Shown here piece by piece: positions 2,206 through 63,597 of a stretch of 64,000 nt of DNA. Below the pieces are notes generated by a model. It ran no database searches, was not told the DNA's origin, and saw nothing but the letters and a program-made list of their open reading frames with translations. Origin of the DNA: a virus (taxonomy: Duplodnaviria; Caudoviricetes); the IMG/VR virus record IMGVR_UViG_3300020112_000604, positions 32,001 through 96,000 of that record. The stretch is one strand, 5' to 3'. The translations under genes and the position numbers were made by a program. Each line of letters starts with the position of its first letter. The first letter of the stretch is position 1.

Positions 2206-4227
2206 ATGGACAATATTATTACAGGATATAGTAAAGGTGCTAATATAACAATCATGAATACAATCAATCATCCAGGTCATTTTGGTGAAAACAACAAATG
2301 GATCGGGTCTAAGTTAGACCTGATCTATAAAGACTGCGATACAGGTAAAAAGGGTGTTGAACAGATTGATACCCCTATGTATGAGTATTATCTGTTAAAC
2401 GATGAAGCATATCACGTTGATTACAATCGTGACTTCATTGAGAGGGAAAACGTTCATCCAGTTATATGCGAACATCAGAAACTCAAGTATGATATAGCAG
2501 AGAAGACTGGTAATCTTGAATGGTTCAAACAGAATAAAGCCACAGGTAATGGTAGACTCAACAACAAAATTCATTATCATCCGGATGTATTCATGTCTGA
2601 CATGAATATCTCAGATCATTATCGTTTCCAGTTCAATACAAACTATAAGAATGAAGTATGTCCAATAACAAAGATGTACTTCGATATTGAGTGTGATACT
2701 ATCAATATTAAGGGTGACTTCCCGGAATTAGGGGAAGCACCGGTTAATGCTATTTCATGTATCATGGATCATACAGTATATGTATTCATTCCTAGAGACT
2801 ATACTATTCCGGGAATGGTTGCATTCGAAAAGGAAGTCAATGAACACAAAGCTGAACTCGAAGCTGAGTTCGTTAAGTTCATTCAGGACTATGTAGGTGG
2901 CAATAGACCAAAAGTTTATCAGAAACGTCTTAAGGCTCTCGATATGGAAGAACTTCATATCAAGTTTGCGTTCTACGATTCAGAGATTCAGTGCATAGCA
3001 GCATTCTTTGCAATGGTAAACAAGTTACAGCCGGACTTCGTCCTTGCGTGGAACATGGGATTCGATACTCCGACTCTGATTGAAAGAATTCGTCAGTGTG
3101 GTTATAAACCAGAAGACATTTGTTGTCATCCAGACTTCAAGAAGAACAGAGTTGCTGAATATGTAATCAAGTATTCAGACATAGCACCGGATGACTATGC
3201 AGAACGCGGAGACTATTGTAATATCAGCGGTTATAGTAACTGGATGTGTCAGCTTATTCAGTTTGCATCTAAGAGAAAGGGACAGCACGCAATCGAAAAC
3301 TATAAGATTGACTACATTGGTCAGTTAATATGTGGTGTACCGAAGCTTGACTATTCTCACATATGTGATTCTATCAAGGATCTTCCGAGAGCAGACTTCA
3401 GAACCTTTATCTTATACAATATTGTGGATACTATAGTTCAGAAGTGTATTGAAGAAAGAGTTAATGATATTGACTTCGTATTTGCGAATACAATAGCATT
3501 CAACACAAGATATTCTAAGGTACACAGACAGACTGTATTTCTTACTAATAAGAGAATCAAGGAATTCATGGCTTCAGGATTCGTTCCGGGTAATAACGTT
3601 AACAAAGAAAACGAAAAGAAAGAATATCCGGGTGGTTTCGTTGCAGACCTTGAACTCATATCACATTATCCTATGGATAAGATCAATGGTGTTCCAGTTA
3701 GACTGTTTAAGAACTTGGTTGACTTTGACTATAAGTCACTTTATCCATCTATCTGGCGTCAGTGGAATATGTGTAAGAATGGTATGATTGGTCAGATGAA
3801 TCTCTTAGAACCATCTAGATGCGGTAATAAGTTCGGGGTTAAGTGTTATGACACTAATATAGCATTTGCTCAGGATATTCATGCGGCAAACTGGATTGAG
3901 TTCGGTTGGAGATGGTTTGACTTACCAGACTTCGAAGAAATGGTTTCAGATTGTGAAGAGTACTTTAAGAATCATAGAACACAGGGTTATATGGCTCTTA
4001 ATCCAGATAATGGAGCAATCAAACTCTTCAGACCAAGAGACACAATAAACAAACCTATCAAACCTTGCAGACATTGGCAGGCTAACGAATTTGCTGATTA
4101 TAAGATTAACGATGTAAAGTGTATAAAGCCATATAGTCTTGATGTGCCTATGGATAAGCTTTATGACACATACTCAGTTAAGTTCTTTGAAGAGCGTTCG
4201 GATGTCGTAGCAATGGCTGAACAGTAA
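2206..4227 (+). CDS. Family-B DNA polymerase, N-terminal part (3'-5' exonuclease plus motif A only), 673 aa
   Basis: ExoI FDIECD, ExoII AWNMGFD, ExoIII YNIVD, YPGGFV and motif A DFDYKSLYPS are present; motif B (KxxxNxxYG) and motif C (DTDS) are absent. Start moved to ATG 2206 (RBS AAAGGAG). Confidence 0.9.
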   Translation: MDNIITGYSKGANITIMNTINHPGHFGENNKWIGSKLDLIYKDCDTGKKGVEQIDTPMYEYYLLNDEAYHVDYNRDFIERENVHPVICEHQKLKYDIAEKTGNLEWFKQNKATGNGRLNNKIHYHPDVFMSDMNISDHYRFQFNTNYKNEVCPITKMYFDIECDTINIKGDFPELGEAPVNAISCIMDHTVYVFIPRDYTIPGMVAFEKEVNEHKAELEAEFVKFIQDYVGGNRPKVYQKRLKALDMEELHIKFAFYDSEIQCIAAFFAMVNKLQPDFVLAWNMGFDTPTLIERIRQCGYKPEDICCHPDFKKNRVAEYVIKYSDIAPDDYAERGDYCNISGYSNWMCQLIQFASKRKGQHAIENYKIDYIGQLICGVPKLDYSHICDSIKDLPRADFRTFILYNIVDTIVQKCIEERVNDIDFVFANTIAFNTRYSKVHRQTVFLTNKRIKEFMASGFVPGNNVNKENEKKEYPGGFVADLELISHYPMDKINGVPVRLFKNLVDFDYKSLYPSIWRQWNMCKNGMIGQMNLLEPSRCGNKFGVKCYDTNIAFAQDIHAANWIEFGWRWFDLPDFEEMVSDCEEYFKNHRTQGYMALNPDNGAIKLFRPRDTINKPIKPCRHWQANEFADYKINDVKCIKPYSLDVPMDKLYDTYSVKFFEERSDVVAMAEQ

Positions 4228-56468: not shown

Positions 56469-56480
56469 TATACTAATGTT
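56469..56480 (-). promoter_or_regulatory. Late-type promoter AACA-TTAGTA-TA (tape measure)
   Basis: Exact motif just before RBS AAAGGAGGGG. Confidence 0.7.
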
Positions 56481-56505: not shown

Positions 56506-56544
56506 AAAAAAAATATACCGGAAGGCTATAAGCCTTCCGGTATA
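56506..56544 (-). terminator. Intrinsic terminator
   Basis: TATACCGGAAGGCT/AGCCTTCCGGTATA 14-bp stem plus T tract. Confidence 0.9.
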
Positions 56545-56548
56545 ATAA

Positions 56549-57607
56549 TTAATTTGAATACGTTACTTTCTGACGAAGTGCTGCTAAGTCTGATGCGTCA
56601 CATACGCCATTGTTGTCCATGTCGCAAATCTTTGCACGACTTGCTGGTACTCTCTTGTCCACGAGAGCAGCTGCTAATTCTGAAAGATCTGTGATATCAA
56701 CTACACCGTTGCAGTTGTAGTCACCTTTCTTAAGTCCGAAGTTCCAGCGTGTTGAATTATCGTATATTGTGGATGTAGCCTGAATATTTTTAGCACTCAG
56801 AAGTCTCCATGTGTCATGTGTAGTAGCACCAGTCTTATACTTCGAATCAGACTTTAAAAATTGTATGAAATAATTACCTGCTGTACCATATGTATTATAG
56901 TCAGTTCCATCCCATGTCGGATCACAATTATACCATTCTCCATCAATTTTTACTTTAACCCACATGTGAGCTGAATTAACGACCAGTTCACATTCGAGAC
57001 CAGCATAATTACATATCTTGTCAAATGCTCTTCCGAATCCTTCACATACACATTTTTTATCTACTAAAGCACCGATTGCGCAACGGGCATTAGGCGCATC
57101 TGATACGTATTTAACGTTTGTAACAAGCCACTTGTTAATAGCTATAGCCTTTTCAAGATCACTCATGTTTGTTGTAGCTATAGAATTCCAAACAGCTTTC
57201 GCAGCATTGTTTTCTGCATTGTTTTTAGCAGTCCAATCACTCTTGGTGTTTTTGTATGTTATGCCGATCCGACCAATTATTATCTGTTTATTGGCATTAT
57301 ACACTGGTGAAATTGACATCGCGTCAGCGATTTCAATGTTGTTACAATCTTCAGTTATTCTCGCATCGCCCACGAGTCGGTTTATACGCTGTATTGTTGG
57401 ATCGTTTGCATCCGAAAGATTCTGGATAACCATATCACATGATGATAAATCGATCACGGTCTGACCGTTTAAGAGACCATTTCTTATAATCGACATAATG
57501 GCTTCATCCGATGCCGCTGCGGATACCGGGATTGCTGAGCAAAGTATCACTAAGCTCATGATTGCTGACAGGAATCCTGCCAGAAGTTTACTAAATCGTT
57601 TTTTCAT
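56549..57607 (-). CDS. Secreted transglutaminase-like (Cys-His-Asp) protein with a C-terminal dockerin, 352 aa
   Basis: Signal peptide MKKRF...VSA; VCEGFGRAF / HMWVKVKIDGEWYNCDPTWD; GDYNCNGVVDITDLS ... DMDNNGVCDASDL. Confidence 0.9.
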   Translation of the reverse strand: MKKRFSKLLAGFLSAIMSLVILCSAIPVSAAASDEAIMSIIRNGLLNGQTVIDLSSCDMVIQNLSDANDPTIQRINRLVGDARITEDCNNIEIADAMSISPVYNANKQIIIGRIGITYKNTKSDWTAKNNAENNAAKAVWNSIATTNMSDLEKAIAINKWLVTNVKYVSDAPNARCAIGALVDKKCVCEGFGRAFDKICNYAGLECELVVNSAHMWVKVKIDGEWYNCDPTWDGTDYNTYGTAGNYFIQFLKSDSKYKTGATTHDTWRLLSAKNIQATSTIYDNSTRWNFGLKKGDYNCNGVVDITDLSELAAALVDKRVPASRAKICDMDNNGVCDASDLAALRQKVTYSN

Positions 57608-57680
57608 AGGTATAAACCATCCTTATAATATTGCGGTATGATTACCATACCAAATTCCCTAAAATACCATTTTTTGGTAT

Positions 57681-57692
57681 CATTAGAATGTT
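57681..57692 (-). promoter_or_regulatory. Late-type promoter AACA-TTCTAA-TG
   Basis: Motif between the upstream terminator and the dockerin gene; overlaps a 10-bp direct repeat (57689-57709). Confidence 0.55.
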
Positions 57693-57709
57693 CACAATTT
57701 GTTCACAAT

Positions 57710-57744
57710 AAAAAAATAAACGAGCAGGAAGTTATCCTGCTCGT
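57710..57744 (-). terminator. Intrinsic terminator
   Basis: ACGAGCAGGA/TCCTGCTCGT stem plus T tract. Confidence 0.9.
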
Positions 57745-57750
57745 CAGCAA

Positions 57751-58176
57751 TTAGTTTGTGAGTCTGTCAAATACCGCGTCAATAACTTCGTTAGGCTTGT
57801 TCCACCACTGGTGTTCTCGTATAGCGATAGCACTCCGTACAAGTTTTCTACCGAAGTTCGGATAATAATAATCATTTACCATATACTTGACGTATGATTT
57901 CTGTGATGGTGCATCAGTTTTAATCTCATCACGCACAATCTTTATCATACCCGCATAGAGACGTGCCGCAAATTCAATCTCAGTTCTATCCTGCTGGTAT
58001 CCATACAGAATAATGTTTTCGTTATTGTTATACAGGAATTCATATATCCTATTCATTATAACTGTATTCTGAGATGGTCCGGTTGGTCTGAATGGCTTGT
58101 TATACACAGGGACATCACGATCTGGTCCCTGAGCTGTCATAAACATTAATGGACGGTTTTTATAATTACATTTCAT
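57751..58176 (-). CDS. Hypothetical protein, 141 aa
   Basis: RBS TAAGGAG. Confidence 0.75.
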   Translation of the reverse strand: MKCNYKNRPLMFMTAQGPDRDVPVYNKPFRPTGPSQNTVIMNRIYEFLYNNNENIILYGYQQDRTEIEFAARLYAGMIKIVRDEIKTDAPSQKSYVKYMVNDYYYPNFGRKLVRSAIAIREHQWWNKPNEVIDAVFDRLTN

Positions 58177-58187
58177 ATTATGTCTCC

Positions 58188-58544
58188 TTAAATATCACAG
58201 TGTTCTTTTCCTTCAAAAATGATAAGCTTTATAGATTTCTTGCTTTTCCTCCAGACTGCCAGAAGAGCGTATTCCGGAAGTGCTGTGTCGTCAAATGCTA
58301 AAATCTTAACAGCGTCAACACATTCGATTCGATTTTCCCAATAGGAATGGTAGAATACGAATGGGTCCGGATTGTGTTTATCACGCATTTTGTTTTCGAT
58401 ATGCTGATAAACATCCTTGACGGTAACTACATACCTGGAATCCGTTGCAGCCTCGAAGTCGTGTAATATCGTTGCTGTGGAATCCACTGGTTCAGTTATC
58501 ATTAATGCGGTTCTCCCTAATCTGGTTGTACTTATATGGCTCAT
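58188..58544 (-). CDS. Hypothetical protein, 118 aa
   Basis: RBS AAAGGAG; ATGA overlap with the upstream frame. Confidence 0.75.
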   Translation of the reverse strand: MSHISTTRLGRTALMITEPVDSTATILHDFEAATDSRYVVTVKDVYQHIENKMRDKHNPDPFVFYHSYWENRIECVDAVKILAFDDTALPEYALLAVWRKSKKSIKLIIFEGKEHCDI

Positions 58545-59357
58545 TTCATTTCTCCTTTATTATTCACGGTCTTGAAATACGATAATAAATTTTCTGAAGC
58601 GCTAACGATAGAATTAATGCATGTTCGGCAATAGTTCATTTCGGCATATGTATATGATTCATCGTCTGAGACCGAAAAATTCGTCATCACACATTTTACA
58701 TTTGCGTGTATTGTCTTCATCATCGGAAGATGTATCTGTGCTGCGAGTTATGGTATCAATGCCGTTGATCATTTCTTCAATGAAGTTCATACCGTATAGG
58801 GCATTTAATTCTTTCTTGGTGTCTCTGTCGATTCTTTTCTTAGGTTTGTCTTTGTCGAATACATCAACGTATAGCTGTTTCTGGTCGTAACGATGTCCGT
58901 CAGCTAACGCGAATATTTTCTGTAAGCATGTCGTTGCCGGAGCAGATAATTCCGGTGATGATATGCTTAATGCGAATAGCTTTATAAACTCAACGTCATA
59001 CAGTTTCGAGTCGCGATGAAAAGTTCGATTCAAATTGATTTCTACAAGAAATCTTCTGAAATCAATTTTTGTTATCATATTCATGACGATAAAGTCTTCA
59101 ATTGATTCGACATCTGTCGTAATTGTTCGATATGGAATATCGATTGCAAATGTCAGTTCAGTTCTCCCGAATGCTATAGCCACATCTATTGAATACGATT
59201 TGATATTATTTTTAGGGTTTTTTATAGCATAGATTAATTGAACAAGCTTTTCAGCAATTTCTTTTGTTGTTTTAGCTGTGCATACAGGTTCGGTGTTCAG
59301 TTCAACTGATGTATACACATTGTAACGTATTGGTTCATCGTCAATTTTAATTGGCAT
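58541..59357 (-). CDS. Hypothetical protein whose C-terminal zinc ribbon is split by a +1 frameshift (232 aa as written, ~271 aa if joined)
   Basis: CKMCDDEF in frame 0 continues as SVSDDESYTYAEMNYCRTC in the +1 frame across a T5 run (58675-58679). Confidence 0.6.
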
Positions 59358-59376
59358 AGTGGTTTCCTTTCTACAA

Positions 59377-59577
59377 TCAATTGTTGTTAAGCATATTGGT
59401 TATTGATTCTGGCGTACCTTCAACCACATATGCTTTACCCGAAGTCATAATGATTCTAGTGTCTGTTGGTGTTGTTGCCTTAGCGACTGATTCGATAAGG
59501 TCTTTGTTGATTGTAACAGTTTTCTGTAACTCAGCCTTTCCTGAGATATTAGGTTCATTAAATGTAACGAATTTCAT
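59377..59577 (-). CDS. FlbD-like small protein, 66 aa
   Basis: INKDLIESV...TRIIMTSGKAYVVEGTPESI resembles the FlbD pattern INxDLIE...TxIxLxxGKxYVVxE. Confidence 0.6.
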   Translation of the reverse strand: MKFVTFNEPNISGKAELQKTVTINKDLIESVAKATTPTDTRIIMTSGKAYVVEGTPESITNMLNNN

Positions 59578-59595
59578 ATTCTACATCTCCTTCAT

Positions 59596-59629
59596 AAAAA
59601 TAATCCGGGAAGTCAAAGAGACTTCCCGG
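59596..59629 (-). terminator. Intrinsic terminator
   Basis: CCGGGAAGTC/GACTTCCCGG stem followed by ATTATTTTT. Confidence 0.85.
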
Positions 59630-59638
59630 TATAACGTA

Positions 59639-60724
59639 TTACTTGTGTGATATATAATTCTGAAGTTCGATAACGTCCATTACGTCGATGCTGCCATCGC
59701 CGTTGAAATCGGCCTCACGTTTAACAGAATTTGGAGTGTTTTTGTTTGTGGTAAAATTACGAAGATAAGATAAATCTGTAATATCTACTGTGCCGCTATG
59801 ATTAACATCTCCGCGTCTGTAGCTGCTTAAATTCCAGTTAGCGTAATCGTAGAATGTGGAATTTGTTGCTGGTAGTACTTCGTATGTAAGAGTAGCAGCG
59901 CCGTAATTTCTGTAGTATGAACACATTGTTGCGTATTTTGAACCGCTAACGAGGAAAGGTTTATATGCGTTAGCTTTATTGAACTGCTGATAGTTCTGAG
60001 CACCCTGGAGTATGTCTAACATATACCATGTGCCGTCAATCTTAACAGCGTTCCATTCGTGGTTTGAATAAGTATCGCATACCATTTTACAATCAATGCC
60101 TATCTTTTCGCAAACGAGATTTAATGCTGTTGACATTCCGCTACAAACTGCAGACTTGTTTACTAATGCGCCATATGCAAAATACATTTCATCCCAACCG
60201 TCGCTTGCTTCCGTCGTCGGAACGTTTACATTGGTGATGAACCACTTATAAACCGCCTTGATCTTTTCGAGGTCGGTGCCGTTTTTAGGAGCAACTGAAG
60301 CCACATTGTTTATTGCATTCTTGAGAGCGGTTTCACGTGTTTTATAACCTGAACTTCCTATTGGGTATCGACATTCAATGTGAACTGATTCAGACTTATT
60401 GTTATTATCGCCGCAAACACCACAACTTGTCATGCAACATGCATTCAAGGTTATGTCCATCGTTGCTGCTTCGTACAGCATAGTTGAAATCTGAAGATCA
60501 TGAATAACGTCTCCTGTAGTTCCGGCTAAGTCAGAAATAGGGATGTAGATATCTGATTTTCCTGTCATACGATTTTTAGCCGTTTCTAGGTTTTTAGTGA
60601 AGTTTGCGTTGTTTCGTGTGCTGGTTATTTCCCTGCGAGCTGCTGAAGTTGTGATTGGTGTGCACATAACCGTCACGCCAATGATTGCTGAGATAATTCC
60701 TGACAATATTTTTGTGAATTTCAT
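59639..60724 (-). CDS. Secreted transglutaminase-like protein with a C-terminal dockerin, 361 aa (paralog of 56549-57607)
   Basis: Start ATG 60724; signal peptide MKFTKIL...TSA; AVCSGMS / HEWNAVKIDGTWYMLD; GDVNHSGTVDITDLS ... ADFNGDGSIDVMDV. Confidence 0.9.
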   Translation of the reverse strand: MKFTKILSGIISAIIGVTVMCTPITTSAARREITSTRNNANFTKNLETAKNRMTGKSDIYIPISDLAGTTGDVIHDLQISTMLYEAATMDITLNACCMTSCGVCGDNNNKSESVHIECRYPIGSSGYKTRETALKNAINNVASVAPKNGTDLEKIKAVYKWFITNVNVPTTEASDGWDEMYFAYGALVNKSAVCSGMSTALNLVCEKIGIDCKMVCDTYSNHEWNAVKIDGTWYMLDILQGAQNYQQFNKANAYKPFLVSGSKYATMCSYYRNYGAATLTYEVLPATNSTFYDYANWNLSSYRRGDVNHSGTVDITDLSYLRNFTTNKNTPNSVKREADFNGDGSIDVMDVIELQNYISHK

Positions 60725-60757
60725 TTGGAACCTCCTAATAAAAATGTACATTAATAG

Positions 60758-60783
60758 TCGGGAGACACCGAAGTGTCTCACGA
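60758..60783 (-). other. Intergenic UUCG hairpin (stabiliser or weak terminator)
   Basis: TCGTGAGACAC-TTCG-GTGTCTCCCGA with no strong T tail. Confidence 0.65.
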
Positions 60784-60794
60784 ACTTTTATTTA

Positions 60795-61634
60795 TTACTT
60801 GATTGATGAATTGATGCCGGCGAACAGTGTTCTTGTATCGATTACTTCATCTAATAATGATGATGAAGTAGCACTTCTGCCATATACGAAACACCAGTTC
60901 TTTGATGAGTTTGCCGCGTAAGCTACATATGTACAAACGTACTTGTAAGTTGAATCAAATACAGAAACCTGTCTTTCATATGAACCGTCTCTGAACTTGA
61001 GTTCTGTAACAGCGATGTATACAGATTTGTTGAGTACAGTTCCATTGTAATATGTTGTAGAACCAGATGTAGATGCTGATGGTCCTATTTTGAAATACGG
61101 TACATAATCATCAAGATATCCGTATCTGTCGCTCATGCCCATGACGCGGAGGTTTGTGCTTCTGCCAAGGAACAGAGCATTGCCTGAACGTACTGAACCT
61201 GAGTATGTTGTGAATGTGTTGTCATTTGTGAAACCTGATACGATGAGGTTGCCATTTGTATCGATAGCCTGATAAATATATCCGGGTTCAGTTTCTGACG
61301 GTGTATAGACGTCAGTTCCGATTGTTGTCTTAGAACCGAGTGCATACTGAGTATCGATCTTAGAAACGATTCTTCTAAGACCTACGAGATCTGCTGTGGT
61401 GATAACACCGTTTGAATCGATATCGGCTACGCTGATATCTGCTGTTGCTCTGCCTGAGAAAACATCATTGAATTTTGAAATATCTGTGACGTCAATGACG
61501 CCATTCTTATTGATATCTCCTGTCTGCCATGTCTTTGTGAATGGAATATTAACAGCCGCTGAAGCTGCAGCAGATACTGTCATTACTGTTCCGAGCACGA
61601 GTGCTATAAATCCCGAAATAATTCTCTTTTTCAT
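60795..61634 (-). CDS. Secreted protein with an N-terminal dockerin and an unknown beta-rich C-terminal domain, 279 aa
   Basis: Start ATG 61634; signal peptide MKKRII...ASA; GDINKNGVIDVTDIS ... ADIDSNGVITTADL. Confidence 0.88.
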   Translation of the reverse strand: MKKRIISGFIALVLGTVMTVSAAASAAVNIPFTKTWQTGDINKNGVIDVTDISKFNDVFSGRATADISVADIDSNGVITTADLVGLRRIVSKIDTQYALGSKTTIGTDVYTPSETEPGYIYQAIDTNGNLIVSGFTNDNTFTTYSGSVRSGNALFLGRSTNLRVMGMSDRYGYLDDYVPYFKIGPSASTSGSTTYYNGTVLNKSVYIAVTELKFRDGSYERQVSVFDSTYKYVCTYVAYAANSSKNWCFVYGRSATSSSLLDEVIDTRTLFAGINSSIK

Positions 61635-61649
61635 AGTATTGTCCTCCAA

Positions 61650-61955
61650 TTATCTTTTTGTGCAGTTTGTATATACTCGAAGTAAGTTTCCCGATGTGCT
61701 GTAAATTTCGAGCCTTCCTCCGTAGTATGTGTACATGATGTCATAGTATCTTCCCTCGACGGAGCCGTTGGAATAATACACCGTAACATTTCTTCCCTTA
61801 CGTCCCCATCCATCATTTGTAAATGATGTCTGTGAACTGATTGTTGTAGCCGCTGAAACGGTTACAGAGCTGTTAATTGATGTGTCTGGTAATACTGATG
61901 GTGCAACGCCCATCATCATTACTGCTGCAAGTAGTGAAATTAATTTCTTCTTCAT
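61650..61955 (-). CDS. Small secreted protein, 101 aa (paralog of 62792-63100)
   Basis: Signal peptide ...SVTVSAA; TVYY...MYTYYGGRLEIY. Confidence 0.8.
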   Translation of the reverse strand: MKKKLISLLAAVMMMGVAPSVLPDTSINSSVTVSAATTISSQTSFTNDGWGRKGRNVTVYYSNGSVEGRYYDIMYTYYGGRLEIYSTSGNLLRVYTNCTKR

Positions 61956-61980
61956 TATGAAATCCTCCTTATAATTTATA

Positions 61981-61992
61981 TACTAAACTGTT
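61981..61992 (-). promoter_or_regulatory. Late-type promoter AACA-GTTTAG-TA
   Basis: Exact motif, intergenic, upstream of the secreted/dockerin genes 61955-59639. Confidence 0.65.
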
Positions 61993-62004
61993 ACTATCAG
62001 TGTA

Positions 62005-62274
62005 TTACTTTACATTATTGATGCCCCAATCAGTCTGCAGTTCAATTTTAAGTTGAACCACATCTCTGGCATCGATGACGCCGTCATTGTTGACGTCAGC
62101 TGATTCCCAGTACTCGCCGTCGAGTATGAGATTGCATAATGTATCAAAATCAGCCCAGTCGGTATAACCGTCTGTGTTGATATCTCTGTCCGCAATTCTT
62201 GTAGGTGCAGCGCCATTGAGCGTTACGGTTGAGCTAAATATTGTTGCAGATAAACAAAGTGCTACAAAATTCAT
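62005..62274 (-). CDS. Stand-alone dockerin protein, 89 aa
   Basis: Start ATG 62274 (RBS GGAGG); hydrophobic N-terminus; DINTDGYTDWAD ... ADVNNDGVIDARDV. Confidence 0.8.
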   Translation of the reverse strand: MNFVALCLSATIFSSTVTLNGAAPTRIADRDINTDGYTDWADFDTLCNLILDGEYWESADVNNDGVIDARDVVQLKIELQTDWGINNVK

Positions 62275-62278
62275 ATGT

Positions 62279-62722
62279 TTATTCCTCCATAAGATTGACT
62301 GCAAATGATTCCGGCCATGCCATCATGACATATTCGGACTGACCTAATGATGAATTGTTCACGTCAACGAATCCATTCTTTATATAGAATGACACCTTCG
62401 TATCATAGAGATATTCCTTTACAGAACCCTCTATTGAGTTATATTCTTCTTCAGATGTACATCCGACCTTTACAATTACTGGTAACTGATTTGCTGCCAT
62501 AATGCCCTGAAGCACTTTGGAACCAATTCCCACATGACGATATGCTTTATTAACTTCGATTAAATCGACATATATAAATGAACACGGTGCGTTCTTCATT
62601 GTGTCAAGATCATCCAAAAATAATTCCCGGTTCTGGCGTACGATTATGCTTTTATTAAACACGATGTACTTATAATGTACAACACCAGTGTTTCTTTCTA
62701 TTATGTCATACATTGAATACAT
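62279..62722 (-). CDS. GNAT-family acetyltransferase, 147 aa
   Basis: VDLIEVNKAYRHVGIGS (motif A) and FYIKNGF. Confidence 0.85.
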   Translation of the reverse strand: MYSMYDIIERNTGVVHYKYIVFNKSIIVRQNRELFLDDLDTMKNAPCSFIYVDLIEVNKAYRHVGIGSKVLQGIMAANQLPVIVKVGCTSEEEYNSIEGSVKEYLYDTKVSFYIKNGFVDVNNSSLGQSEYVMMAWPESFAVNLMEE

Positions 62723-62737
62723 AAAGTTTTCCTCCCA

Positions 62738-62774
62738 TAAAATAAATAGACCACAGGTTAATAACCTGTGGTCT
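62738..62774 (-). terminator. Intrinsic terminator
   Basis: AGACCACAGGTT/AACCTGTGGTCT stem followed by ATTTATTTT. Confidence 0.85.
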
Positions 62775-62791
62775 GGTTTGTGATTAACCGA

Positions 62792-63100
62792 TTAGCATTT
62801 ACGTACGCCGTGCCAACGTGCTATCAGTCTAGCTGAATCCCAGTCGTAGATCTCTAAGCAGTCGCCGTCAAATGTGTAAAATACCTTGTTATACACGATC
62901 CAAGGTTCATTGATATGATGGAAGTAAACGGTTCTGCGGACATTTGAGTCGCTCACCATAAACTCATAATATTTAGTTGCCGCAGAAACTGAAACTGCGG
63001 TTTCGGATGATGTGTCGTTGTTTGAGAATGATGCCGCTGGAGCTGCAATCATAGTTAATGCCATCATGCCTGCTAAAAGTGTTTTGAAAACGTTCTTCAT
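62792..63100 (-). CDS. Small secreted protein, 102 aa
   Basis: Start ATG 63100; signal peptide ...AVSVSAA; TVYF...FYTFDGDCLEIY. Confidence 0.8.
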   Translation of the reverse strand: MKNVFKTLLAGMMALTMIAAPAASFSNNDTSSETAVSVSAATKYYEFMVSDSNVRRTVYFHHINEPWIVYNKVFYTFDGDCLEIYDWDSARLIARWHGVRKC

Positions 63101-63123
63101 TGTGGTTTCCTCCTTATGTATAA

Positions 63124-63597
63124 TCAACGTACTTTGTCAGCTTTACAGATGTAGTCTACCGCAAATGGAAGTGGCAGCTTCATCATGACAACGTACTCTG
63201 ACTGACCGAGTGGTGTGTCACTTAAATCAACAAAACCATTGCGTTCATAGAACGGAACCTTGGTTTTTATGATATAACCTTTGACATCGTCAATATTGGC
63301 GTCGTATTCTTCTTTAGACACGCAACCAACCTTAGCAAATATCGGATACTGTCCGAGAGATGCTGCTCTGAATATTGCTTTAGTGCCGAGACCTTTACGT
63401 CTATATTCCGGTTCAATGTTTATCAGATCCAAATATACGAATCTTTCCGGGCGGTTAGTTAAACCTTCGATATCGTCGAATAGTGTTTCCTTATTTCCCA
63501 TTCCGTCTACATGGTCATAAAGATGAAACTTTAAGATTCCAGCTTCATGTCCTTTATAAAATAAGGTTGTTTCGTATGATTCTGATTTAATGTACAT
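63124..63597 (-). CDS. GNAT-family acetyltransferase, 157 aa (paralog of 62279-62722)
   Basis: LDLINIEPEYRRKGLGT and FYERNGF; shares KVGC and LGQSEYV with its paralog. Confidence 0.85.
   Translation of the reverse strand: MYIKSESYETTLFYKGHEAGILKFHLYDHVDGMGNKETLFDDIEGLTNRPERFVYLDLINIEPEYRRKGLGTKAIFRAASLGQYPIFAKVGCVSKEEYDANIDDVKGYIIKTKVPFYERNGFVDLSDTPLGQSEYVVMMKLPLPFAVDYICKADKVR

Follow-up and report, generated by a model that had tools for sequence, protein, structure and literature searches.

An island of 12 kb that encodes dockerin-bearing proteins lies across the end of a 64,000-nucleotide stretch of DNA (hereafter the window) from IMG/VR record IMGVR_UViG_3300020112_000604, a linear metagenomic contig of 183,720 bp with a CheckV completeness of ∼75%. 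Genome coordinates are those of the window plus 32000. The first-pass annotation of the window had described a set of four dockerin open reading frames (ORFs), two pairing the dockerin with a transglutaminase-like (TG-like) Cys-His-Asp triad (here TG-Doc1 and TG-Doc2), one pairing it with a beta-rich domain (Doc-beta1) and one consisting of a bare dockerin. All four are present on the minus strand of the window with the domains claimed for them. As a count for the island, however, four was too low: a six-frame search of the whole record revealed two further dockerin ORFs 2-4 kb beyond the window end (genome 98239-99105 and 99315-100526), so that the island holds six dockerin proteins and two small secreted paralogues. 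One of the additional ORFs encodes a second Doc-beta protein (Doc-beta2), and the other a protein of 403 amino acids with a signal peptide, a dockerin, a Thr-rich linker and a C-terminal domain that received no assignment. The features are listed in Table 1, where L119 denotes a 73.9-kb JGI contig of a sister strain.

Table 1. Genes and sequence elements in and around the dockerin island (window coordinates).
Feature	Position	Strand	Remarks
Giant virion protein ORF, 4170 aa	43934-56446	-	Immediately downstream of TG-Doc1; late-promoter motif at 56480; 97% identical in L119
Intrinsic-terminator hairpin, 14 bp stem and T-run	56514-56544	-	Directly after TG-Doc1
TG-Doc1, 352 aa	56549-57607	-	Signal peptide, N-domain, TG-like Cys-His-Asp core, C-terminal dockerin
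Late promoter motif AACATTCTAATG	57681-57692	-	Upstream of TG-Doc1; fits AR9 consensus
Terminator hairpin	57719-57745	-	Closes small-gene block
Five small cytoplasmic ORFs (141, 118, 60, 232, 66 aa)	57751-59577	-	82-99% conserved in L119
FlbD-like ORF, 66 aa	59377-59577	-	PF06289 30.7 bits (cut-off 24.7); PHROG 8458 'flagellar protein', moron class
Terminator hairpin	59605-59629	-	After TG-Doc2
TG-Doc2, 361 aa from ATG	59639-60724	-	Signal peptide, N-domain, TG-like core, dockerin; absent from L119
Doc-beta1, 279 aa	60795-61634	-	Signal peptide, N-terminal dockerin, orphan beta-rich C-domain
Hypervariable cassette	60841-63129		46.7-kb contig of run X1 has 1479 other bases instead
Small secreted protein 1, 101 aa	61650-61955	-	First gene of late operon; paralogue of 62792-63100
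Late promoter motif AACAGTTTAGTA	61981-61992	-	Heads operon of small secreted protein 1, Doc-beta1 and TG-Doc2; fits AR9 consensus
Bare dockerin, 89 aa	62005-62274	-	Shine-Dalgarno-backed ATG at 62274; absent from L119
GNAT-like paralogue B, cytoplasmic	62279-62722	-	Below Pfam cut-off; absent from L119
Terminator hairpin	62748-62774	-	Between GNAT-like B and small secreted protein 2
Small secreted protein 2, ∼102 aa from ATG	62792-63100	-	Paralogue of small secreted protein 1
GNAT-like paralogue A	63124-63597	-	Below Pfam cut-off; 88% identical in L119; right-hand edge of variable cassette

For identification of the dockerin modules we used the Dockerin_1 profile (PF00404; Pfam gathering cut-off 22.9 bits), which TG-Doc2 (43.2 bits), Doc-beta2 (36.2 bits), the bare dockerin (33.8 bits) and TG-Doc1 (28.8 bits) all exceed. 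Although Doc-beta1 scores 15.7 bits and so falls under the cut-off, its assignment as a dockerin is secure because its counterpart in L119 scores 33.2 bits and its paralogue Doc-beta2 also passes. The 403-aa protein reaches 22.4 bits alone and 30.9 bits summed. On alignment, a pair of D-x-[ND]-x-[DNS]-G-x-x-[DNTS]-x-x-D loops is seen in all six modules, with a helix behind each loop, as in the duplicated 12-residue Ca-binding loop and helix of clostridial type I dockerins (PF00404; C. thermocellum Xyn10B, 1OHZ/2CCL). The TG-Doc2 dockerin can be aligned directly with dockerins from solved cohesin complexes (1OHZ/2CCL and 4FL4), and an AF2 model places its helices at residues 315-326, 332-338 and 348-360 with a pLDDT of 80-95. 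The phage modules nevertheless differ from the clostridial type in two ways. Positions on which cohesin specificity depends in known dockerins vary among the six and also depart from those of the solved ones, and the module is N-terminal, right behind the signal peptide, in two of the four proteins in the window and three of the six in the island. The phage dockerins share 27-49% identity with each other and 28-42% with the closest of the bacterial dockerins sampled. The dockerin_GC model (NF041540) had no match in the record.

Both TG-like proteins pass the gathering cut-off for Transglut_core (PF01841; 23 bits), with 37.9 bits for TG-Doc1 and 42.2 bits for TG-Doc2 (44.4 and 41 bits in the six-frame search), and in alignments of 9 and of 31 sequences no exchange is seen at Cys194, His222 or Asp237 of TG-Doc2. 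The AF2 model of TG-Doc2 has a mean pLDDT of 74.5, with the TG-like core above 90. When this core was compared by Foldseek, the best solved match was 9CRN, S. pyogenes TglA (E 1.3e-7, TM 0.44), for which no paper was found in the literature; further matches were the transglutaminase 4XZ7 and the putative cysteine proteases 3ISR and 3KD4. We infer from these sequence features that TG-Doc1 and TG-Doc2 are transglutaminase-like cysteine (iso)peptidases, their activity being putative. The Doc-beta cargo is of a different kind. The AF2 model of Doc-beta1 is of low confidence (pLDDT 36.5), its structural neighbours in the Atlas all lie below a TM of 0.5, and a word-based homologue search with the C-terminal domain returned only itself, with no homologue outside the phage lineage. 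PHROGs contains no family for the TG-Doc or the Doc-beta proteins.

Signal peptides were called by a crude sequence rule rather than by SignalP. By this rule 12 of the 161 ORFs in the record have signal-peptide-like N-termini, and eight of these 12 sit in the island. TG-Doc1, TG-Doc2 and Doc-beta1 each show the classic n-h-AXA organization, in keeping with the three signal peptides reported at first pass. The N-terminus of the bare dockerin is hydrophobic and has no charged n-region, which makes its export doubtful. The two small secreted proteins, of ∼65-70 residues when mature, share a conserved Y..Y...LE[IV]Y core (the L119 members lie at 3138-3440 and 3455-3772 of that contig) and matched no Pfam or PHROG family. 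They always adjoin a Doc-beta gene and diverge along with it between strains, and they might act together with the dockerin proteins or inhibit them.

To judge from its sequence, the record is an AR9-like jumbo phage, distantly related to Bacillus phage AR9. One virion protein in the window is ∼25% identical to its counterparts in AR9 and PBS1 (phiKZ-related jumbo phages of Bacillus with RNA polymerases of their own), the window encodes a DNA polymerase and virion proteins of PHROG families, and genes are preceded by the AR9 late promoter, AACA-N6-T[A/G], whose last base is the start site (PMC5312081). This motif occurs in the sense orientation within 100 nt upstream of 31 of the 161 ORFs, compared with 15.2 ± 3.7 in shuffled sequences and 7 in the antisense orientation. 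Two of its occurrences lie ahead of dockerin genes, which bears out the earlier observation that three dockerin ORFs stand behind a late-type motif, and the giant virion gene next to TG-Doc1 is preceded by the same motif. Terminator-like hairpins are likewise enriched (15 versus 4.7 ± 2.0 in shuffles), and those after TG-Doc1, TG-Doc2 and the small-gene block agree with the proposal that the dockerin genes use the terminators of the phage. The island thus shares with AR9 and PBS1 late motifs before late genes and operons bounded by terminators, whereas those phages have no dockerin genes (no match in deposited phage genomes). Its GC content, 0.37-0.40, is ordinary for the window. Late-promoter motifs, terminators and base composition together indicate that the dockerin genes are integrated in the phage, as a genuine accessory island. 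On its side away from the giant virion gene the island is flanked by a T4-type prohead protease, and the 4170-aa product of the giant gene is probably an ejected or tape-measure-like virion protein, as far as can be told from its sequence. By eye, an M23/LytM-like HxxxD...HLHY segment and a Cys-peptidase-like segment can be made out in it. A search with PF00562 for a split multisubunit RNA polymerase gave no match in the record, ∼75% complete as it is; the RNA polymerase subunits of phiKZ-related phages are very divergent.

Dockerin genes are typical of bacteria and the record is a linear, incomplete metagenomic contig, and it was therefore important to consider that the island might be an assembly chimera or host DNA contaminating a viral bin, an outcome that the first-pass annotation had itself named as refuting its view. 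A 46.7-kb contig from a 2018 faeces metagenome runs from the giant gene through TG-Doc1, the small genes and TG-Doc2, and then from GNAT-like A to past the prohead protease. The same island junctions are present, in pieces, on contigs of three other studies, and L119 again shows the island beside the giant virion gene. Since independent contigs span the virion gene, the island and the far flank, and since base composition, promoter motifs and terminators are also those of the phage, we consider a chimeric origin ruled out for practical purposes and contamination extremely unlikely.

Logan contigs from four runs and four studies were compared over 18 kb with the island inside. Every strain compared has kept the island, and depth falls to about zero over most of the hypervariable cassette in all four runs. 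The sister strain L119 illustrates the extent of the turnover. Its flanks are 88-100% identical to those of the record at the protein level, but its Doc-beta is only 41% and its two small secreted proteins 44-48% identical, and TG-Doc2, the bare dockerin and GNAT-like B are missing. TG-Doc1 of L119 is 98% identical, but its frame is broken by an A6>A7 run immediately ahead of the codon for the catalytic Cys (L119 7227-7243; window ∼57050), which could represent pseudogenisation, slippage-type switching or a homopolymer sequencing error. Six non-synonymous changes and one synonymous change were counted in TG-Doc1, against 43 and 74 in neighbouring genes (Fisher p ∼0.015, with small numbers); ungapped dN/dS of the giant virion protein was disregarded because of indels. 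Such a predominance of non-synonymous changes is typical of host-interface genes. A further hairpin (60762-60779, minus strand; 7-bp stem, TTCG loop, no T-run) lies between Doc-beta1 and TG-Doc2, at the junction where TG-Doc2 is present or absent among strains.

Orthologous clusters, which the first-pass annotation had suggested looking for in related phages, were found in the strains compared above; ten more distant metagenomic relatives (prohead protease 30-43% identical; six of them at least 93% complete) contained no dockerin. Nor was a Sec-type secreted protein found within 10 kb of the prohead protease in 11 distant-relative loci, where the crude rule flagged a single 73-aa ORF that looks like a membrane anchor. 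Nearer phage relatives exist, with prohead proteases 57-87% identical (P0195-P0206). Given its absence from the ten distant relatives and the loss and divergence of genes between strains, the island is lineage-specific, partly dispensable and fast-changing. Single-protein scans of IMG/VR with TG-Doc2, the N-terminus of the giant protein and the prohead protease returned no relatives, and a scan with the TG-Doc alignment returned TG cores only. A DNA pattern for the dockerin was found on six other viral contigs in IMG/VR, none of them matching the virion protein of this phage. One, IMGVR_UViG_3300033074_001105 (G001, 157 kb; locus L024), encodes a 421-aa signal-peptide protein with a C-terminal dockerin and other cargo, as well as another secreted protein that has a dockerin-like motif in its interior. 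In another (G002, 178.9 kb; locus L021) the dockerin frame holds one TAG, which may reflect recoding.

Absence from distant relatives and gene loss between strains, together with the wide occurrence of dockerins outside cellulosome producers, would also suit modules that do not dock at all but act as Ca-binding stabilising tags or carbohydrate- or matrix-binding tags, or genes that are host-derived morons with no role in infection. We regard this as improbable. All six modules have preserved the residues of the Ca loops and the helices even though their mutual identity is low, the cargo domains are phage-specific orphans and not recent host genes, phage late-promoter motifs and terminators frame the genes, and the island has been retained in every strain compared. 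Because the dockerins are no closer to bacterial ones than to each other, and because the Doc-beta cargo is confined to the lineage, these are old phage genes and not a fresh host insert.

The statement made at first pass that no such described phage system was known also agrees with our searches, in which the papers found mention viral dockerins only in passing and deposited phage genomes contain no clear dockerin. Among 50,697 deposited phage records, TG-Doc2 matched TG cores only, and its dockerin gave three weak matches, on short uncultured fragments. In the literature, an ANME-2 virus contig has been reported to encode a NosD-like protein and dockerins (PMC13452462), and a dockerin is mentioned in a brine-pool jumbo phage (bioRxiv 10.1101/2024.01.25.577265). 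These reports resemble the present case in that the modules lie on viral contigs, one of them beside a signal-peptide protein, and in that a role in surface adhesion was suggested. They differ in being single annotations from other host groups, with no multi-gene secreted set, TG-like cargo, promoter context or strain comparison.

The combination of signal peptide, TG-like domain and dockerin is, as had been pointed out in the first-pass annotation, a known Ruminococcus architecture. R. flavefaciens FD-1 has ten TG-like dockerin proteins, and four with this three-part organization are encoded in one operon (PMC2930009). Its ORF01263-01266 carry group 4b dockerins (PMC2930009), which are marked by an extended first repeat, and the group-4 dockerins of R. 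flavefaciens bind the wall-anchored ScaE cohesin (PMC2930009, PMC5301203). Compared by architecture only, the FD-1 and phage proteins share the three-part organization, a head-to-tail gene cluster, variable N-terminal and conserved C-terminal parts, and a TG-like module whose function is unknown in both. The FD-1 genes, however, are chromosomal and stand beside the organism's own scaffoldins, whereas here they belong to a cohesin-less lytic-type jumbo phage and are accompanied by phage late-promoter motifs.

An exhaustive profile search detected many TG-like proteins and just two close full-length relatives, P0007 (on a 30.7-kb contig) and P0008, which are ∼30% identical to the phage proteins and have the same dockerin linker. 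In the set with the same architecture, the named members are proteins of Ruminococcus sp. metagenome-assembled genomes (MAGs), and it is to these, not to FD-1, that an identity of ∼22-27% over the whole protein refers. Single cohesins with a membrane anchor are likewise encoded by Ruminococcus MAGs that have such TG-like dockerin proteins. When genomes and metagenomes were scanned with the TG-Doc alignment, TG cores of many Bacillota made up most of the result, and a profile built on the phage dockerins had matches in 101 of the 301 genomes sampled from the order to which a Ruminococcus MAG belongs, which did not narrow down the host. With nearest homologues this distant and similar dockerins this widespread, the earlier identification of the host as a Ruminococcus-like fibre degrader is conjectural, and so is a rumen habitat, since the runs that hold the phage come from animal gut or faeces and also from soil and wastewater. 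(Runs containing the stretch include one RNA run, X15, with a small share of it only.) The host is presumably a cohesin-bearing, Ruminococcus-like member of the Oscillospirales.

We favour, with moderate confidence, the interpretation that the dockerin is a surface-address tag by which late phage effectors are brought to the scaffoldins of the host. Late in infection, the set of dockerin proteins would be expressed by the phage's own transcription machinery and exported by the host Sec system, and their type-I-like dockerins would plug into cohesins on the host's own surface scaffoldins, of the cellulosome or amylosome type. The docked cargo would comprise two TG-like cysteine (iso)peptidases, two orphan beta-rich domains, one Thr-linker protein and one bare plug, the last of which could merely occupy a cohesin socket. 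As a result, the scaffoldin layer would be remodelled or blocked on the infected cell, on its debris or on neighbouring cells. Possible outcomes are destruction or masking of a receptor, stripping of a bulky surface layer, cleavage of scaffoldin or wall peptides, and aid to lysis and release.

Several points weigh against this interpretation, in which we infer export, cohesin binding, host identity, enzymatic activity and purpose alike. Late expression is predicted from promoter motifs, and export from signal peptides called by the crude rule. At 28-42% identity to bacterial dockerins the cohesin specificity of the phage modules cannot be read from their sequences. Dockerin modules also occur in organisms without cellulosomes, and their partners there are unknown. 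The loss of TG-Doc2 and the frameshift in TG-Doc1 in one strain suggest that these genes are dispensable, although the frameshift may equally be a homopolymer error. A cohesin encoded by the phage itself, finally, could lie in the missing quarter of the record.

The last of these points leads to an alternative in which the plugs bind a phage-encoded socket, either a cohesin or a non-canonical partner, located in the missing ∼25% or among the orphan proteins, and form a phage-owned extracellular complex or decorate released virions. It would draw on the incompleteness of the record and on the two small secreted paralogues, which change together with Doc-beta between strains. With PF00963, however, we obtained no match at E≤10 in the 183.7-kb record (∼75% complete), and phmmer with 27 ORFs from the cohesin loci of Ruminococcus MAGs matched only a dockerin in it, so that a cohesin-dockerin system within one genome is not apparent there. 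At ∼65-70 mature residues the small secreted proteins are half the size of a cohesin, and six dockerins with different recognition positions are better suited to a host with many cohesins. We give this alternative little credence; because the record shows no cohesin, the tags most likely plug into those of the host.

The nature of the TG-like cargo raises a different alternative, namely that these proteins are dockerin-anchored accessory lysins, exported wall or S-layer (iso)peptidases in which the dockerin replaces wall-binding repeats. They would undermine the envelope at the time of lysis, or act on neighbouring cells from outside, and would not mask receptors or remodel scaffoldins. There is precedent in PeiW and PeiP of methanogen phages, pseudomurein endoisopeptidases in which a binding domain is joined to a TG-like Cys-His-Asp catalytic domain (PMC2989375). 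In one bacterial homologue of TG-Doc2, choline- and cell-wall-binding repeats stand where the dockerin would be. This homologue, like PeiW and PeiP, shows that the catalytic module acts at cell surfaces with interchangeable targeting domains, an observation that suits the surface-address tag as well. The predicted late expression and the Foldseek grouping of the core with transglutaminase and putative cysteine protease structures fit as well. Likened by description, PeiW and PeiP of Methanothermobacter phages share with the TG-Doc proteins a phage-encoded TG-like domain fused to a surface-targeting module, but they have pseudomurein-binding repeats and no signal peptide and are the lysin of their phage, whereas the TG-Doc proteins have dockerin targeting and predicted Sec export and are dispensable between strains. 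The phage already has a CHAP/endolysin-type domain on one virion protein, and with TG-Doc2 missing and TG-Doc1 split in the sister strain, neither can be an essential lysin. Moreover, a peptidase domain is lacking in four of the six dockerin proteins, and binding to a cohesin would still be required. For the two TG-like enzymes a lysin-like role is as good an explanation as the conjectured clipping of surface proteins, masking of a receptor or loosening of the cell from fibre suggested at first pass; as an account of the island we consider it rather unlikely.

Returning to the surface-address tag, we advance more tentatively the broader possibility that the cohesin scaffold of the host serves the phage as an address system, on which an exported and changeable effector kit competes for, cuts or blocks scaffoldins. 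It would then be comparable to viral neuraminidases, as a device for receptor destruction or exclusion, and the swapping of cassettes would reflect an arms race with cohesin specificities.

The remaining genes of the region are interleaved with those of the dockerin proteins, among them the two GNAT-like paralogues, which resemble acetyltransferases. The FlbD-like ORF, related to a protein of flagella and swarming, is of interest since AR9/PBS1-type phages adsorb to flagella, and its product could interfere with the motor of the host. Beyond the window, two tandem paralogues of 123 and 124 aa with ∼28% mutual identity (genome 97336-98099, equivalent to window 65336-66099) sit between the variable cassette and Doc-beta2 and are 94-100% conserved in L119.

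Pairing of cohesins and dockerins organises the machines with which gut Ruminococcus and its kin degrade fibre and starch, and has hitherto been treated as purely bacterial. If our interpretation is correct, the island would represent a new viral way to interfere with cohesin-dockerin machines, with a bearing on fibre attachment, phage adsorption and release, and fibre digestion in animals, and it would provide naturally diversified dockerins for cohesin-dockerin engineering. The turnover of the cassette marks a host-interface locus and offers a direct route to the host and receptor layer of this uncultured jumbo phage lineage.

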